Assembly: GCA_044225365.1 (NCBI GenBank) | Contig: JBGAIQ010000087.1 | Location: forward strand, 1 to 14,109 | Source of the DNA: Planctomycetota bacterium | GTDB taxonomy: Bacteria > Planctomycetota > B15-G4 > JADJEK01 | Direction of reading: 5' to 3' | Length of the DNA: 14,109 bases | Shown here: positions 2 to 14,109 of the stretch, in pieces | Layout of the letters: each line of letters begins with the position of its first letter | Numbering within the stretch: position 1 is the stretch's first letter | Notes under the pieces: generated by a model | What the model was told of the DNA's origin: nothing | The model's database searches: none | The model's input: the letters and a program-made list of their open reading frames with translations, nothing else | Program-made: the position numbers and the translations under genes

Positions 2-118
2 CCCGTGCCCGGCGGCGGCGGGCCCGCGTTCTTCTTCGTCCAGATGGTGACGCCGAACGCCGCGATGCCGAAGGGTTACGAGGTCACGAACTGCTTGCAG
101 GTCGTGCTGCTCGCCTGA
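2..118 (+). CDS. 3' end of a partial CDS, probably a secreted protein ending in the same C-terminal domain family as the two FG-GAP proteins
   Basis: Manual translation of frame 2 gives PVPGGGGPAFFFVQMVTPNAAMPKGYEVTNCLQVVLLA-stop (TGA at 116-118). The pattern Q-x4-[N/D]-x3-P-x-G-x3-T-x-[C/A]-hydrophobic strand matches the ends of the neighbouring proteins. Not in the ORF track because it is truncated. Confidence 0.7.
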   Translation, partial: PVPGGGGPAFFFVQMVTPNAAMPKGYEVTNCLQVVLLA

Positions 119-131
119 CCTCAGGCCTCGG

Positions 132-1856
132 TCAGTCGAACTTCATCTCGACCGCGCCCGTGCCCGAATGGCCGCCGGGAGCGCCCGGGTCCTGAATGAA
201 CGCCTGCATGCGGATCGTCGCGCCGCCGACCTGGGGCGACAGCAGAGGCAGCGTCGCATCCAATGTGACCGACGCGCCGCCGATCGATCCATTGTTCGTC
301 GAGAGCAGGAGCGACACGGGCAGGAGCTGGCCGAGATAGAGATGGCAGCCGTTGGCGAGCGGGAGGTTCGCCTGGCCGACGCCCAGCAGCACGATGACCG
401 GCGCGTTCCCGATGCACTGGTCGATCTTCATGCTCACCTGCCCCGCGCTCGCGAAGCATCCCGCGACGTCGAGCGAGGGAACGAAGCCGAGCGAGCCCGG
501 GCATCCGACGCCTACTTTCGACGCCAGGCCGCATGCGCCGCGGTAGACGCGGAAGTACTCGGCATGCGGAAGCGGTTGCTGGTAGTTCGTCGAGCGCATT
601 CCGGCGGCGAGATCGGACGACCCCTGCGAATCGACGTTCCCCACGATCGCCAGGGTGGACCCGAAGTGATCGAAGGCCTTCCCGCCATCGGCGTGATAGA
701 GCTTCGCGAACGAAGCGCCCGAGAACACGTTCACCGTTCCGCCCTCGGTGATTCCCGCATGGACGTTTTCGAACGGCGCGCCGACCACGAGATCCGGAAC
801 GCCGTCGCCCGTGAGGTCCACGCCGCCCACGACGGTGATTCCGAATTGCGATCCTGCCGCGCCCGACAGCGTGGCGAGGAGATGGCCGTCCTTGCCGGAA
901 TGCACGCGCACGGTGTCGGAGAGAGGCGCGCCGATGACGAGATCCGGCACCCCATCGAGATCGAGATCTCCAGCCGTGGAGACCGCGGAGCCGAAGCCGT
1001 CGAGCGGCGCGCCCCCGACGATCTGCAGCAGCGACGCTCCGGTCTTGGGCGAGAAGATCCGAACGTATCCCGGATGGGTGGTGTCGAGGAAGCGATACGT
1101 GCCCGCTGCCGCATCGGGTGATCCATCGCCATCGATGTCCCCCACGCCCGCCACCGCCGTTCCGAGCAGATCGTAGGCCGCGTCGCCGTAGCCCTTGAAC
1201 GAGGCGGCGTGCGAACCGCCCGAGATCACCCACACGGCGCCGCAATTCACGCCGTGGCTCGAATCGTCGTGGACCGCGCCCGCGGCGAAGTCGGCGTTGC
1301 CATCCTGGTCGATGTCGCCGAGGTTGGCGAGCGCACCGCCGAGCCGATCTCCGATGTCGTCGCCCGCAATGCTGAAGAGCGGCGCGCCGGTCTTGCCGCT
1401 GAAGAAGCGGACGGCGCCCGAGTCGCTTCCGTTGTCGTTCGCGAGGGGCGAGCCTACGGCGACGTCGGGGTAGCCATCTCCGTCGAGATCTCCGGCGCCA
1501 CAGATCGCCGCGCCGAAGAGCGCGCCGTAGTACTGGATGGAACCGATGGTCAGGGCCACGGCACCGGTGGCGCCCGAATGGATGCGCACGACCGGGCCGT
1601 AGCCGAACGCGAGTTGGCCGCCGAGCAGATCGGCAACCGCGATGTCCGGGATGCCGTCTTGCGTGACGTCGCCAACCCCCGCCACCGTGTAAGCGAAACT
1701 CGTGAGTCCCGTGGCCGAACTCACGGAATCGACCTGATACAGGAGATTCTGCGCCTCGCTCCGATTCGAAGCGAAGGCAACCGCGAGACACGCGAGGGTG
1801 CACTGCAAGGAAAGACGGCCCGCCGGTTTCATGGAGTGTCTCATGGACTGTCTCAT
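132..1856 (-). CDS. Secreted FG-GAP repeat (integrin alpha-like 7-bladed beta-propeller) protein with Cys-containing C-terminal domain, ~574 aa
   Basis: Seven repeats of the type G-D-[LIV]-D-G-D-G-x-P-D-x-x-V-G-A-P (e.g. GDLDGDGYPDVAVGSP, GDLDLDGVPDLVIGAP) with FG motifs between them. Signal-peptide-like segment LQCTLACLAVAFASNRSEA-Q. Start moved from 2168 to the ATG at 1856, which overlaps the upstream stop (ATGA). ATGs at 1844 and 1832 are alternatives. Confidence 0.85.
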   Translation of the reverse strand: MRQSMRHSMKPAGRLSLQCTLACLAVAFASNRSEAQNLLYQVDSVSSATGLTSFAYTVAGVGDVTQDGIPDIAVADLLGGQLAFGYGPVVRIHSGATGAVALTIGSIQYYGALFGAAICGAGDLDGDGYPDVAVGSPLANDNGSDSGAVRFFSGKTGAPLFSIAGDDIGDRLGGALANLGDIDQDGNADFAAGAVHDDSSHGVNCGAVWVISGGSHAASFKGYGDAAYDLLGTAVAGVGDIDGDGSPDAAAGTYRFLDTTHPGYVRIFSPKTGASLLQIVGGAPLDGFGSAVSTAGDLDLDGVPDLVIGAPLSDTVRVHSGKDGHLLATLSGAAGSQFGITVVGGVDLTGDGVPDLVVGAPFENVHAGITEGGTVNVFSGASFAKLYHADGGKAFDHFGSTLAIVGNVDSQGSSDLAAGMRSTNYQQPLPHAEYFRVYRGACGLASKVGVGCPGSLGFVPSLDVAGCFASAGQVSMKIDQCIGNAPVIVLLGVGQANLPLANGCHLYLGQLLPVSLLLSTNNGSIGGASVTLDATLPLLSPQVGGATIRMQAFIQDPGAPGGHSGTGAVEMKFD

Positions 1857-1860
1857 GGAA
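1829..1860 (-). repeat. Imperfect 12-bp tandem repeat (~2.7 copies) at the gene junction
   Basis: + strand reads tcatggagtgtc / tcatggactgtc / tcatggaa. On the - strand each unit contains ATGA. Confidence 0.8.
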
Positions 1861-4381
1861 TGGTCACCCACCACGCCGAGGTGAAGGCCGCGCCGAGCGG
1901 CACGCCGGGATCGAGGACGACCGCCTGCAGCGCGAACGACATCGCGGTCGTGGACGCATCGAGTCGACCATTCAGCTCCACCGTTCCGTTTCCGGGACCG
2001 ACTCCCGCGAGGGGGAGCGCCAGGATCGCGGGCAGGATCGGGCTCACGAGCAGGGTGCAGGCTCCGATATGGATTCCCGCCTGCCCGCCGCCGAGGAGCA
2101 CGAATGCGGTCGAGCCGCCGAGGGCGGATTCGATCCGCAGCGTCAGCGAGCCGCCCGGCACGGGGCAACCCTCCAGGACCGTTTGGGGCACGATTCCCCC
2201 GCTACCCGCGCATCCCGTCCCGTATGCGAGCAGGGATCCCGCGCACGGCGGCGGTCCGATCTCTCGCAGCACGTACGCACCTTTTTGCGCCGCGATCACC
2301 AAGTCGAGCCGCGCGTCGCCGTCGAGATCCGCAGCGACCGGATGCCCGCCAGGCGGACCGATGATTCGTCTGCGCATTCGCAGATTGCCGAGGCCGTCGT
2401 CGTCGACGACCTCCGCGCCGTCGTTCGTTCCCAGCACGATCTCGATGCCGCCGTCGCCATCGAGGTCGATCGCCGTCGCGTGATCCGCGTTGGCGAGGCA
2501 CGTCAGAGTCGAGGTCTCGAGGAATTTCAGCGTGCCATTGCCGAGCTCGAGCGCGAGGCGGCCCTGGTAACTCCCCGGTCCTCCGTAGCCGAGCAGGTCC
2601 GGAAACCCGTCCTGGTTCCAATCCGTGGTGAGCGCGCGCGCTCCCCCTTGCCATAGGGTGAGGGTCTTCGCGACGAAGCTGCCCGCGCCTTGATTCTGCA
2701 GCACGACGTAGCCGCCCGTTGCGACCACGAGGTCGAGATCGCCGTCGAGATCGAGGTCGCCCTCCGCGATCCCGCCGCCGGCAGGGATCGTCAAGGCGAC
2801 CGCGACCGCGAATTGGCCCGCGCCGTCTCCGGCCGCACTCACCATCTTGCCGCTCCCCGCCTCGATGAGATCGGGATCGCCCTCTCCCGTGACGTCCGCG
2901 AGCGCGATCCCATCGACCAACACCGGAATGGATAGCGACTGTGTCGTCGTCTGGAACGAGCCGTTCGCTTGTGCTCGCAGGAGCGCGAACGAGGACGCTC
3001 CTTTCTGGGCGACGACCACGTCGAGCCGTCCGTCGTGATCGATGTCCGCACTCGAGGCGTCGCCGGTCGGCGCCATCGAGAGATTCGTCGTCGACTGCGG
3101 GGCGAGCCCTCCCGTGGCCGTCCCGAAACGCATCACGTATCCGCCCGCCGACTGCGAGAGATTCGTCGCGAACTGGAGGAGATCGTTCCGGCCGTCACCG
3201 TTCCAATCGAATGCGAACTGCTGACTCACGAGCGGGAGAGATCCGTCGGCGAACAGTACGCCGCCAAAGGCTCCGCCGCCGCGGCCGAGGACGAGCCCGT
3301 GCGAATCTGGCACGAACAGGTCGGGGAGCGCGTCGGAGCCGAAACGGGCCGGGACGACGAACGAAGGATTCGAGCCCGCGTAGCTCGGAACGGGCGCGCC
3401 GAATCCGCCATGGCCATCGCCGGGAAAGACCTCGATCGGCTGCGCGAGGCCCGTTCCCGAGTGCCCCGCGACGACATCGACGGCGCCGTCCCCCGTGACG
3501 TCGGCGACCGTCGCGCCGGCGAGCTCGAACGAAGTCGAGAGCACGGTCGAAGGACCGATCGCACCGCTCGCCGTCCCGAAGAAGATTCGGATCTGACTCG
3601 ACGCGGGGATCGGGACCGCAATATCCGCTCGGCCATCGCCATCGAAATCCCCCATCCCGACCCGGCCCGGATCGGACGGAAGGTTGATCGCCGTCGTCGC
3701 CGCGAAGTGCCCGGTCCCGTCGCCCAGCGCGACCCGCATCTTCTGTTCATACAGTTTGTCGACCGTGACGAGGTCGGCGTTGCCGTCCCCATTGAAGTCA
3801 CCGATCGCGAGCGAGACGATCTGTCCCGGGAGGGAGATGGTGAAGGGAGCCGCGAAGCCGCCGGGAACGGCGAGCTGGACCGCGACCGCGTTGCTCGCCG
3901 TCACGCCGCCGGTCACGATGTCGCCGCGTCCGTCGCCGTTCACATCGGCGAACAGCCGCGCATTGACGATGCCGCCCGCGCCGGTCGCGAGCAGCGTCGG
4001 ACTCGACAAGGCGCCGGCGCCGTCGCCGCGGAGGTAGAAGATCAATCCCCCGGTGATGAGGAGGTCGTTCTTGCCGTCGTTGTCGATGTCGGTGATGGCG
4101 AGGGGTTGCGGAGCGAGTCCGAACGAAGCTCCCGGAGCCACGCTCGGCAGCCGGAGTCCGCCGGCGGCATCGCCGAGCATCGCGAGGATCTTCACGCCGC
4201 CGTACGTGGCGAGGCAAAGGTCGTCGATCCCGTCGCCGTCGAGATCGCCGATCGCGAAGCCATCGGAAAGCGTGTCTACCCCGGAATCGACTCCCTGGGT
4301 TCCGAAGCGTTCGGTCTGACCATCCAGCTCGGCGACGACCGCCGCAGTGAGAAACCCCGCGGCGAAGAATCGAGATCGCAT
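1853..4381 (-). CDS. Secreted FG-GAP-like/VCBS repeat protein (14 repeats, probably two beta-propellers) with Cys-containing C-terminal domain, 842 aa
   Basis: Signal-peptide-like start MRSRFFAAGFLTAAVVA. Fourteen D-x-[DN]-x-D-G-x-x-D-[LIV]-type repeats, some degenerate (GDLDGDGIDDL through ADLDGDARLDL). The C-terminal ~130 aa begins CAGSLLAYGTGCAGSGGIVP. Confidence 0.88.
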   Translation of the reverse strand: MRSRFFAAGFLTAAVVAELDGQTERFGTQGVDSGVDTLSDGFAIGDLDGDGIDDLCLATYGGVKILAMLGDAAGGLRLPSVAPGASFGLAPQPLAITDIDNDGKNDLLITGGLIFYLRGDGAGALSSPTLLATGAGGIVNARLFADVNGDGRGDIVTGGVTASNAVAVQLAVPGGFAAPFTISLPGQIVSLAIGDFNGDGNADLVTVDKLYEQKMRVALGDGTGHFAATTAINLPSDPGRVGMGDFDGDGRADIAVPIPASSQIRIFFGTASGAIGPSTVLSTSFELAGATVADVTGDGAVDVVAGHSGTGLAQPIEVFPGDGHGGFGAPVPSYAGSNPSFVVPARFGSDALPDLFVPDSHGLVLGRGGGAFGGVLFADGSLPLVSQQFAFDWNGDGRNDLLQFATNLSQSAGGYVMRFGTATGGLAPQSTTNLSMAPTGDASSADIDHDGRLDVVVAQKGASSFALLRAQANGSFQTTTQSLSIPVLVDGIALADVTGEGDPDLIEAGSGKMVSAAGDGAGQFAVAVALTIPAGGGIAEGDLDLDGDLDLVVATGGYVVLQNQGAGSFVAKTLTLWQGGARALTTDWNQDGFPDLLGYGGPGSYQGRLALELGNGTLKFLETSTLTCLANADHATAIDLDGDGGIEIVLGTNDGAEVVDDDGLGNLRMRRRIIGPPGGHPVAADLDGDARLDLVIAAQKGAYVLREIGPPPCAGSLLAYGTGCAGSGGIVPQTVLEGCPVPGGSLTLRIESALGGSTAFVLLGGGQAGIHIGACTLLVSPILPAILALPLAGVGPGNGTVELNGRLDASTTAMSFALQAVVLDPGVPLGAAFTSAWWVTIP

Positions 4382-4502: not shown

Positions 4503-6299
4503 TCAGGGCGCGCTCTGCATTCGCTTCGCAGCCTCGGCGTCCACGTAATCGCTGTGACAGCTCAGTTTGCCGTCCTCGACCGGAGCGACGGCTTCCTTCA
4601 CCTCCGCCGCAAGTCGGTGGATCTCCTCGGGCGACAGATAACCGCGCTGCTCGAGGATCTTCTGCTGATCCCCACTGAGGCCGGGTGAGCGCTTGGCCTT
4701 GCCGGTCTCGTACTCCTTCGCCTTGCCCGACGTGAACTCCTGGATCTCCTTCTCCTTCGCCTTGCCCGACGTGAACTCCTGGATCTCCTTGCTGATCCGG
4801 ACGGAGCACCAGTCGTGGCCGCACATGGCGCAGAAGTCGGTGTCGACCGAGAGGTCCTCGTCGTGATACGCGCGCGCCGTGTCGGGGTCGAACGAAAGAG
4901 CGATGTGCTGTTCCCAGTTGAGAGCCGCGCGCGCCTTCGTCAATTCATCGTCGCGATCGCGCGTGCCCGGGATGCCGAGCGCGACGTCCGCGGCATGCGC
5001 GGCGATCTTGTAGGCGATGCAGCCCTGCTTCACGTCGTCCTTCTTCGGCAGGCCGAGGTGCTCCTTGGGTGTGACGTAGCAGAGCATCGATGCGCCGTGC
5101 CACGCCGCCGCCGTCGCCCCGATGCACGAGGTGATGTGGTCGTAGCCGGGGAAGATGTCGGTGACGAGGGGACCGAGGACGTAGAACGGCGCGCCGTGGC
5201 AGAGTCGGCGCTGCAGTTTCATGTTGTACTCGATCTGATCGAACGGGACGTGGCCCGGCCCTTCGATCATGACCTGGACGCCGTGCGCCCAGGCCCGCTC
5301 GGTGAGTTCACCGAGCGTGCGCAGTTCGGCGAGCTGTGCCGCGTCGGTCGCGTCGGCGAGCCCGCCCGGCCGTAGTCCGTCGCCGATCGAGAAACTGACG
5401 TCGTACTCGCGCATCAGCAGGCAGATCTCGTCCCACAACTCGTACATCGGGTTCTGCTTGCCGTGCGTGATCATCCATTTCGCGAGGAGGGATCCACCTC
5501 GCGAGACGATCCCGATCTTGCGATCGCGCACGAGCGGGAGATGCTCGCGCAGGACGCCGGCGTGGATCGTGAAGTAGTCGACGCCCTGCTTCGCCTGATG
5601 CTCCAACGTCTTCATGATCTGCGCGGCGTCGAGATCCTCGATCCGCTTGCCGAGGATCATCGAGTAGATCGGGACGGTGCCGATCGGGGCCGTCGAATGA
5701 CGGATCATCGCGGCGCGACACTCGTCGAGATTGCCTCCCGTCGACAAGTCCATCACCGTGTCCGCGCCCCACCGCAGCGACCAATCGAGCTTCTCGACTT
5801 CGCTGTCCGTGTCGGACGAGATCGGCGATGCGCCGAGATTGGCGTTGATCTTCGTCTTGCTCGCGCGACCGATCGCCATGGGATCGAGACGGAAACCGAG
5901 GTGAACCCGATTCGCCGGAATGATCATCCGCCCGGCGGCGACCTCGTCGCGAATCTGCTCGGCCGTGAGATGGGGTTCGCGCTCGGCGACCCTCCGCATC
6001 TCCGGAGTGATGATTCCGAGGCGCGCCTTCTCGAGCTGCGTGACCGCGCGCGCCGCGTCGCGGGGATTCGGATTGAAGTCCCAGGCCGTCTTCGACGAGG
6101 GCGAGGGCATGCCAGGAGTGTCGGGGGAGCTGAACGTCGTGGGGCCACCGATCCTGGACTCGAGTGCGAACGAACCGGGATTCGTACCTTCGCTCCGCGT
6201 GCTCGGGTTCCGCGCACCATGGAGCGGGAGCTGGATGCCGAGCGCGGCGTAGGCGGTCGAAGGAGAGTCGGGCGCTGCGTTGGATTCGAAGGCGTTCAT
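4503..6299 (-). CDS. thiC: Phosphomethylpyrimidine synthase ThiC (HMP-P synthase, radical SAM)
   Basis: Diagnostic motifs [98 protein letters not shown] and the Fe-S motif CAMCGHDWC (CX2CX4C). TPP riboswitch upstream. The exact start is uncertain because of a low-complexity N-terminal extension. Confidence 0.97.
4713..4790. repeat. Perfect 39-bp direct tandem duplication within thiC (13 aa, [13 protein letters not shown] x2)
   Basis: ctccttcgccttgcccgacgtgaactcctggatctcctt occurs at 4713-4751 and again at 4752-4790 with no mismatches. Confidence 0.95.
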
Positions 6300-6396
6300 T
6301 CTCGAGTGCCGTTCACCCCGTCGGGTCCGGGGATGCGAGGTTCTCTAGGGGCGCTCGAATCGACAGAAGGAACGCTGCGCAGCGGGAGTGCCGCAC

Positions 6397-6482
6397 ATCG
6401 CTTCCCTCCGCCGGTCCGAACCGGATCAGGTTCAACGGGTGCGTCTCAGCCCTCCGCTCTAACGGAGTGCGCCCCGAGCGAT
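6397..6482 (-). promoter_or_regulatory. TPP (thiamine pyrophosphate) riboswitch aptamer / THI-box
   Basis: The - strand reads ATCGCT-CGGGG-cgcactccgttagagcggaggg-CTGAGA-cgc-ACCC-g-TTGAACCTGATC-cggttcggaccg-GCG-g-AGGGA-AGCGAT. It has the conserved CUGAGA, ACCUGAUC and AGGGA elements, a P1 stem (ATCGCT/AGCGAT), and lies ~100 nt upstream of thiC. Confidence 0.95.
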
Positions 6483-6490
6483 TCGACTCC

Positions 6491-13567: not shown

Positions 13568-14109
13568 TTGGTCGAACTCCGAACGTTCTGTTACCTCGAT
13601 GTCCTGCAGCCGCAGCTCGCGAGTTTTCTCGCGACGGTTTCGCAGGGCTACATGCCCGTCGCGGGTCAGGCGGCGCTGTTCATCGAGATCGCGCCGGGCA
13701 TCTCGATCAATCGGATCACCGACATCGCACTGAAGGCGACGGGCGTGGAACCCGGCATGCAGATCGTCGAGCGGGCGTTCGGCGCGCTCGAGATCCACAG
13801 CTTCGATCAGGGCGCGATCCGCGAGGCGGGCGCCGCGGTGCTCCGCTATCTCGGCGCCGATGAAAAGGAGCGCCACAAGCCGAAGGTGATCTCGAGCGAG
13901 ATCATCACGGGCGTCTCCGATTATCAGACGATGCTCGTCAATCGCATGCGGCACGGCGACATGATCCTCGGCGGCGAGACTTTGTACATCATGGAGACGC
14001 TCCCCGCGGGGTATGCACTGCTCGCGGCGAACGAGGCCGAGAAGGCGGCGCCGATCAAGCTGCTCGAAGTGCGCGCGTTCGGCGCGTTCGGTCGGCTCTA
14101 TCTCGGCGG
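13568..14109 (+). CDS. Bacterial microcompartment shell protein, BMC-T double-stacking permuted type (CcmP/CsoS1D/Haliangium BMC-T3-like), partial at 3' end
   Basis: Manual translation from TTG 13568: MVELRTFCYLDVLQPQLASFLATVSQGYMPVAGQAALFIEIAPGISINRITDIALKATGVEPGMQIVERAFGALEIHSFDQG...NRMRHGDMILGGETLYIMETLPAGYALLAANEAEKAAPIKLLEVRAFGAFGRLYLG. The motifs LQPQLA, EIAPG, VERAFG, AANEAEKAA and GAFGRLYL are hallmarks of BMC-Tdp proteins. The frame stays open to the window edge. Confidence 0.93.
   Translation, partial: MVELRTFCYLDVLQPQLASFLATVSQGYMPVAGQAALFIEIAPGISINRITDIALKATGVEPGMQIVERAFGALEIHSFDQGAIREAGAAVLRYLGADEKERHKPKVISSEIITGVSDYQTMLVNRMRHGDMILGGETLYIMETLPAGYALLAANEAEKAAPIKLLEVRAFGAFGRLYLG

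Follow-up and report, generated by a model that had tools for sequence, protein, structure and literature searches.

A predicted beta-sandwich domain at the termini of many exported planctomycete proteins: a candidate surface-docking module

The locus and its shared terminal domain

The window considered here, i.e. the whole 14,109-nt stretch that was analysed, represents the entire contig C91 of a 6.5-Mb genome (65% G+C) of a Planctomycetota bacterium. The relatives of this organism are labelled Planctomycetota in databases, and the clade is presumably the OM190/'Saltatorellota' group. The genome is 94% complete, and 4282 genes were called with a script of our own. Two neighbouring genes on the minus strand, denoted A and B, and the end of a convergent gene on the plus strand share a terminal domain, the subject of this report. 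By open reading frame (ORF) and Pfam analysis, gene A (132..1832, minus; start at the ATG in 1832, with the ATGs in 1844 and 1856 as alternatives) encodes an exported FG-GAP (PF01839) beta-propeller protein of 566 amino acids (aa), and gene B (1853..4381, minus) an exported FG-GAP_3 (PF13517) repeat protein of 842 aa. The propeller subtypes thus differ, as an earlier note on this sequence had stated, and both proteins start with a Sec-type signal peptide by eye, clear in A and weaker in B.

The last ~135 residues of both proteins are alignable (31% identity over 125 aa, E 4e-14). The domain comprises 135 aa with five Cys in A (135..539, minus; family hidden Markov model (HMM) E 9e-28) and 132 aa with four Cys in B (1856..2251, minus; E 1e-31). 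All motifs listed in the earlier note are present in both sequences, and the four Cys that it called conserved do align between A and B (domain positions 3, 13/14, 28/29, and 65). This conservation does not extend to the family, in which 40 of 183 copies are Cys-free. The convergent gene enters the window with its last 38 codons and stop (2..118, plus) and ends, according to the family HMM, in a Cys-poor divergent copy, in agreement with the earlier note. This gene is complete on contig C46, which shares window bases 1-140 without mismatch (C46:34243-34382). It encodes 355 aa with a signal peptide and a non-FG-GAP body that belongs to no Pfam family; the family HMM recognises its end (E 2.7e-12).

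A 12-base tandem repeat (window 1829-1859) overlaps the stop of gene B and provides the three in-frame ATGs of gene A, an arrangement that suggests translational coupling. Overlaps of 140 bases with contigs C46 and C59 are found at both window ends (1-140; 13970-14109). Beyond its shared bases, C46 (G000:C46:34243-35035) carries a gene paralogous to A, at 71% DNA identity over 856 bases; the terminal domain of this paralog lacks the last strand and continues into another frame. Either the assembly forks here between similar genes, or the deletion is real.

A large, uncatalogued family confined to protein termini

An HMM iterated from the A and B domains in a six-frame scan of the genome converged at 195 matches in 195 ORFs. 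Among the 194 matches followed by a stop codon, 179 have it at most 10 residues past the domain end, seven at 11-30 residues, and eight farther away. The latter comprise one fragment and genuine N-terminal copies, which immediately follow a signal peptide in those genes whose start the contig includes. About 20 more genes belong to a second subtype, which has a longer flap and is linked to the family by hhalign (73%, E 3e-5) as well as by the HMM of a second genome. A search restricted to protein tails yielded 228 C-terminal members, the weakest few of which (E 4e-4 to 8e-4) are uncertain, with no match among reversed-tail decoys. In total, 237 of the 4282 genes carry the domain, 228 at the C-terminus and nine, one of them weak, at the N-terminus (about 96% vs 4%). 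The many paralogs that the earlier note had anticipated are thus present, although the domain is not always C-terminal as it had proposed. Since the N-terminal copies retain the fold consensus, and most of them also the terminal motif, a free C-terminus is not required. Each protein harbors one copy, never internal or in tandem, both in the 195 genome matches and in the best 150 database matches.

The family is very large, with 27,036 database clusters at 50% identity matching at E <= 1e-3; the best 150 are all single-copy and C-terminal. A scan of a genome collection gave two loci and an alignment-based protein search eight hits, numbers that do not bear on the range beyond the phylum. All 20 relatives of the same family and order carry it, and 59 of 301 genomes evenly sampled over the phylum match, 55 of them (16 families) with expanded sets and four with one or two matches, a lineage-restricted distribution as the earlier note had supposed. 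A small genome of another order (G191) shows 27 matches, 24 C-terminal and three N-terminal, mostly without Cys pairs. No match was found on plasmids. Copies have diverged to a median pairwise identity of 25%.

None of 125 members matches any Pfam or NCBIfam family, PF18962, TIGR04183, TIGR04131, PF00404, NF041540, and PF00395 included; for the T9SS (type IX secretion system) families PF18962/TIGR04183/TIGR04131, a cut-off of E <= 0.05 was applied in Pfam and NCBIfam. Sequence searches of the PDB returned only weak antibody light-chain rows (E >= 0.0036), and the ESM Atlas matches are unnamed Planctomycetota clusters. No description of the domain was found in the literature searched, which did not cover most subscription papers and supplements; terms for secretion and C-terminal domains are absent from the accessible part of one preprint (10.1101/817700). 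The feature is real and uncatalogued.

Two further observations concern terminal regions of exported proteins. A second terminal family of ~200 aa, rich in Lys, occurs in 18 genes (e.g. C11:704-2704, C75:13605-15626, C38:6283-10941), mostly at the C-terminus and sometimes at the N-terminus, and was not found in G191. It was considered as a relative of the main family and proved unrelated (hhalign 0.3%). Furthermore, a single-copy exported protein of ~400 aa without family assignment harbors a divergent domain copy (C95:219754-220980; L173:7305-8522). This carrier is kept across orders, in 19 of 32 domain-rich genomes (two as weak partial matches) and in none of 48 others.

Predicted structure and residue conservation

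AlphaFold2 modelling of the gene A domain with an alignment of 125 copies gave a predicted local distance difference test (pLDDT) score of 95.6 and a predicted template modelling (pTM) score of 0.88, with eight strands and no long helix. The predicted structure is an all-beta, immunoglobulin (Ig)-like sandwich with extra strands, an N-terminal arm, and a hairpin flap. Foldseek returned nothing at E <= 1e-3; its weak rows comprise the HPI S-layer (surface layer) protein, the BslA hydrophobin, and ML lipid-binding domains, all with E > 1e-3 and a TM-score of at most 0.5. In a wide structural search, macroglobulin (MG) domains and further Ig domains were listed; their scores (Z <= 8.3) correspond to a shared general arrangement.

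Conservation concentrates on structural Gly and Pro residues and on the domain end, where Gln (97%), Asp (80%), Ser/Thr (99%), and Asn (77%) recur; in the 125-copy alignment, only G10, G89, and Q112 reach 90%. The Cys residues form two optional, covarying pairs, e.g. one pair is complete in 75, absent from 79, and represented by a single Cys in three of 157 copies, a pattern consistent with disulfides. The domain is unusually apolar, with a grand average of hydropathy (GRAVY) of 0.57 and 5.4% charged residues vs 15% in the passengers (Lys plus Arg 2%, Asp 2.6%), and its last residue is most often Pro, Gln, or Asn. As the earlier note had remarked, it lacks a transmembrane helix and matches no named family. 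The domain of gene B contains one hydrophobic 19-mer (mean 2.07), but this is broken by Pro and aligned with a strand.

Diverse passengers of extracellular-type composition

BLAST clustering of 184 carriers yielded 76 clusters, the largest of which (n=66) is the FG-GAP group. Pfam domains were assigned to one representative from each of the 75 non-FG-GAP groups. Peptidases (S8, M10, M12, M23) occur beside other enzymes, such as metallo-beta-lactamase, serine beta-lactamase-like, phosphoesterase, esterase, exo/endo-phosphatase, and GSDH proteins, and beside haem proteins, i.e. di-haem peroxidase and multihaem cytochromes. CHRD, LTD, TIG, beta-helix, Kelch, WD40, and SBBP domains were also detected; many passengers match no family, and two exceed the cut-off for the choice-of-anchor families NF038128 and TIGR05002. 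With only 59 of 179 copies, the closest domain relative resides on the same passenger cluster, which argues for shuffling of the domain between passengers. Simple duplication of FG-GAP genes, considered as an explanation, is ruled out by the 76 clusters, only 66 of 184 carriers being in the FG-GAP cluster; the A and B domains are not mutual nearest relatives, B ranking only 15th among the neighbours of A. The diversity of passengers expected by the earlier note, at least 76 clusters in the genome, was thus found.

Signal peptides were likewise assigned, by heuristics and by eye, to nearly all carriers. Two blunt heuristics detected them on 147/184 carriers vs 1443/3054 controls and on 86/180 carriers vs 706/3054 controls, and ~31 of the 37 carriers negative in the first pass have a normal one at an alternative start by eye. 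Of 228 carrier bodies, 212 are without predicted transmembrane segment, 14 have one or two borderline segments, and two are multi-pass. Two multi-pass glycosyltransferase-like proteins are fused to a beta-helix-like region and a degenerate domain copy, and an N-anchored SGNH protein has a similar charged tail; these membrane-bound carriers lie at C77:51702-54668, C40:186315-189191, and C33:223449-224738 (L183, L184, L185).

The carriers have an extracellular-type composition, with a median Lys+Glu+Arg content of 6.7% vs 17.8% in other signal-peptide-like proteins. After identical trimming, the domain was found on 203 of 327 proteins low in Lys/Glu/Arg (extracellular-type) vs 20 of 2589 others. 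The surface location of the carriers is putative, as judged only from their composition.

Exchange with dockerin-like and IPTL-CTERM-like tails

Dockerins are docking modules, and IPTL-CTERM is a named sorting domain linked to exosortases. On two test passengers the present domain alternates with dockerin-like tails, and on one of the two also with IPTL-CTERM-like tails. The best 120 homologues of a vanadium-haloperoxidase-like passenger (61-72% identity besides the query) end in the domain family (57), a probably related subtype (nine; hhalign 42%, E 2.7e-4), dockerin-like tails (41), IPTL-CTERM-like tails (six), other tails (six), or a partial one (one). Dockerin-like and IPTL-like classes were assigned by pattern, and neither pattern occurs in any of the 66 family or subtype tails. 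An NCBIfam scan of 36 of these homologues placed the GC-type dockerin NF041540 over its cut-off in nine, and TIGR04174 at or over its cut-off in two of the six IPTL-like ones. For an M10 protease passenger, the tails of the best 120 among 221 homologues were assigned to the domain family (23), the dockerin-like class (62), or neither (35, many of them dockerin-like by eye); none is both domain family and dockerin-like. The domain hence occupies the slot of dockerin and IPTL-CTERM tails on the same passengers. Among the 301 phylum genomes, the 55 domain-expanded and 25 dockerin-expanded sets do not overlap, a pattern that kinship alone could yield.

Comparison with known sorting and anchoring systems

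Among the closest parallels are the dockerins (PF00404, NF041540) of other Planctomycetota, which occupy the same terminal slot on the same passengers, with one copy per exported protein. They too have expanded strongly in particular lineages, without overlap with the expansions of the domain. In contrast to them, the domain is all-beta, uncharged, and about 125 aa long, it lacks acidic Ca-binding loops, and the genome gives no cohesin match. With the C-terminal domain (CTD) of the T9SS of Bacteroidota (PF18962, TIGR04183) it appears to share the combination of a signal peptide, varied cargo of similar types, and a folded terminal domain, here predicted to be Ig-like. It differs from the T9SS CTD in giving no sequence match, in occurring also at the N-terminus, and in the failure to find PorV or SprA in 80 genomes (the SprA control being silent). 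Moreover, the domain exceeds the length of 67-108 residues given for this CTD in the accessible part of PMC11285876, it has an N-terminal arm and a hairpin flap, and its last strand lacks a conserved Lys. No T9SS CTD is among the structural matches listed, which does not exclude a likeness to the 3+4 sandwich of the RgpB/PorZ CTD.

PEP-CTERM and IPTL-CTERM signals (TIGR02595, TIGR04174) consist of a short motif, a transmembrane helix, and a basic cluster, as far as the accessible part of the source describes them (PMC1569441). IPTL-CTERM-like tails do replace the domain on 6/120 haloperoxidase homologues, yet the domain is soluble-type and folded, with neither the helix nor the basic cluster. 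The S-layer homology domain (SLH, PF00395) forms triple helical repeats, unlike the all-beta model, and the 125 members give no Pfam match. In structure, MG domains of TEP1, C5, and C4 come nearest (Z about 8, root-mean-square deviation (rmsd) 2.6-3.0 Å over about 100 residues), and the ML lipid-binding domains of MD-2, NPC2, and GM2A appear in the weak Foldseek rows (E > 1e-3, rmsd 6-12 Å). With identities of 5-18% and scores at the level of a common arrangement, these MG, Ig-like, and ML folds permit no functional inference.

Search for a partner or dedicated machinery

The earlier note had compared the architecture to T9SS-type and PEP-CTERM-type systems and suggested profiling for a co-occurring translocon or peptidase. 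Neither was supported: the domain lacks a transmembrane helix and a basic tail, PorV was found in none of 80 genomes in a search that detected its positive control, and a two-genome comparison brought up no translocon or peptidase co-occurring with the domain. SprA_N was likewise found in none of the 80 genomes, its control giving no match. In the present genome, Peptidase_C25 and PorP/SprF were not found (controls without match), nor were Por_Secre_tail and FlgD_ig. The genome harbors 13 secretin genes, one exosortase gene (PF09721), and one Pfam dockerin.

A genome from another order (2.4 Mb, 86% complete), of which 2.31 Mb entered the comparison, shares 165 exported-type proteins with the present one; Pfam was run on 89 of them and NCBIfam on 26. 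The set contains BamA, BamB/D-like, TolC-type, and secretin proteins as well as several unnamed ones. A beta-barrel heuristic picked out no more than two proteins, one LptD-like and the other a peptidase-like false positive; a self-BLAST screen for scaffolds was uninformative, as known repeat proteins also gave no repeats. A pseudopilin cassette with a giant protein of 1700-1800 aa is syntenic in both genomes (L077:9692-17586; C73:61375-70156). The giant protein matches no Pfam or NCBIfam family and is called PilX/GspK-like by eye from its N-terminus and neighbours. The profiling of 80 genomes covered two candidates, this protein and the single-copy carrier described above. The giant protein occurs in 32/32 domain-rich, 3/4 marginal, and 23/44 domain-free genomes (58/80 in all), so that the cassette is compatible with a role but not diagnostic.

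Surface docking and the alternatives

The domain behaves as a terminal anchor or sorting module outside the T9SS-CTD, exosortase-signal, and dockerin families. We give about an even chance to its being a retained, non-covalent surface-docking module. In favour of this view are the alternation with dockerin and IPTL-CTERM tails on the same passengers, the separate domain and dockerin expansions in the phylum, the choice-of-anchor passengers, the concentration on proteins of extracellular-type composition, the N-terminal copies, the apolar character of the domain, the failure to find T9SS parts, and the dockerin-cohesin model proposed for another planctomycete lineage. Carriers would be exported via Sec by their N-terminal signal peptide. 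In the periplasm they would fold, disulfides being optional, and some passengers would acquire haem; the carriers would then traverse the outer membrane, probably via a type II-like secretin system of the genome. A conserved apolar face would mediate retention by binding an outer-membrane lipid or glycolipid, or a scaffold protein. The Gly-rich N-terminal arm, the hairpin flap and, at the domain end, the near-invariant Gln...Asp-Pro...Ser/Thr-Asn pattern would form this face.

Several observations weigh against surface docking. Exchange of tails in one slot indicates that their positions, not their chemistries, are equivalent. What dockerins do in planctomycetes is likewise a matter of hypothesis: a dockerin-cohesin 'planctosome' was hypothesised for the freshwater Nemodlikiaceae, another planctomycete lineage, in the accessible part of PMC6461901. 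No cohesin (PF00963) was found in the 94%-complete genome, although the control was detected, and among the 165 shared exported-type proteins no convincing dedicated translocon, peptidase, new beta-barrel, or scaffold was found. An exclusion of the domain from lipoproteins is only suggestive (0/32 vs 5/43, p 0.07; 1/203 vs 2/129, p 0.56). Degenerate copies reside on two multi-pass proteins (family E 4e-4 to 8e-4) and on one N-anchored membrane protein, carriers that cannot be surface cargo. Finally, the T9SS CTD, an export signal read by its fold, tolerates a C-terminal extension according to the accessible text of PMC11285876, so that the N-terminal copies count against an export signal, the competing explanation, without excluding it.

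Such an export signal is possible, if doubtful. The folded domain would serve as an address, and a type II-like machine (secretin and pseudopilins, possibly the giant-protein cassette) would read it in the periplasm, as the T9SS does with its CTD; the cargo might be released or held by other means. The single copy per protein, never in tandem or mid-protein, fits this view, as does the coverage of ~62% of the extracellular-type proteins; multihaem and di-haem cytochrome passengers must fold before crossing the outer membrane, the genome possesses 13 secretin genes, and the giant cassette protein was found in every domain-rich genome tested. The same protein is nevertheless encoded in 23 of 44 domain-free genomes, ~38% of the extracellular-type proteins lack the domain or have other tails, the alternating tails are of the anchor type rather than translocon signals, and N-terminal and membrane-bound copies exist. 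Somewhat more doubtful still is a combination of both functions, in which a T9SS-independent machine would read one folded domain for the export and the display of ~5% of the clade's proteome, haem enzymes included.

It is improbable that the domains bind each other or enter the outer leaflet like hydrophobins, thereby building a mosaic coat, or a lattice resembling an S-layer, on which the passengers are displayed. The extreme lack of charge, the weak Foldseek rows to the HPI S-layer, BslA, and ML domains, and the failure to find a separate partner speak for such a coat, but these rows only reach the level of the common Ig arrangement, a median pairwise identity of 25% is low for a lattice, and the genome showed no abundant protein consisting of the domain alone. 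Slightly less probable again is that the domain is cleaved off and that an enzyme resembling sortase or PorU links the cargo covalently to a polymer of the envelope. This would accord with the alternation with IPTL-CTERM-like sorting tails, the near-invariant Gln, and the exosortase-family gene of the genome, yet N-terminal copies would shed their cargo, the domain has neither transmembrane helix nor basic tail, and no conserved motif was noticed upstream of it, albeit without a formal test. PorV was found in none of the 80 genomes, and no Peptidase_C25 was found in the genome in a search without positive control. The least probable explanation, and a very improbable one, is an Ig-like domain of the ordinary kind, a ligand binder (e.g. 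of glycans) or a spacer, that expanded in one clade and has no sorting role. The generic Ig/MG-like fold (best Z 8.3) and the copies on membrane-bound glycosyltransferase-like and SGNH proteins would suit it; against it stand the complete absence of internal or tandem copies from the 195 genome and 150 database matches, the mutual exclusion with dockerin and IPTL tails, and the occurrence on at least 76 unrelated passenger clusters.

The exchange with dockerin-type and IPTL-type tails on identical passengers makes the display of enzymes and adhesins at the planctomycete surface testable by simple domain-swap reporters. If the domain is bound by a lipid or scaffold, a new anchoring chemistry would be at hand; if a translocon reads it, a new export pathway. 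In case one machine serves export and display, this would be an undescribed secretion-and-anchoring pathway, possibly based on a type II-like secretin together with the pseudopilin cassette that contains the giant protein. Despite its size, the family has no Pfam, NCBIfam, or PDB entry; since it marks the majority of extracellular-type proteins in these genomes, its HMM provides an immediate predictor of the exoproteome for a mostly uncultured branch of the Planctomycetota.

Other features of the window

Farther along the window, an exported right-handed beta-helix protein (PF13229; 8859-10256, minus) is encoded, which is absent from the family matches. The window also contains thiC (4503-6486, minus), with a thiamine pyrophosphate (TPP) riboswitch at 6386-6486. 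Its 3' part contains a 39-base tandem duplication (4706-4790) that repeats 13 residues in frame.

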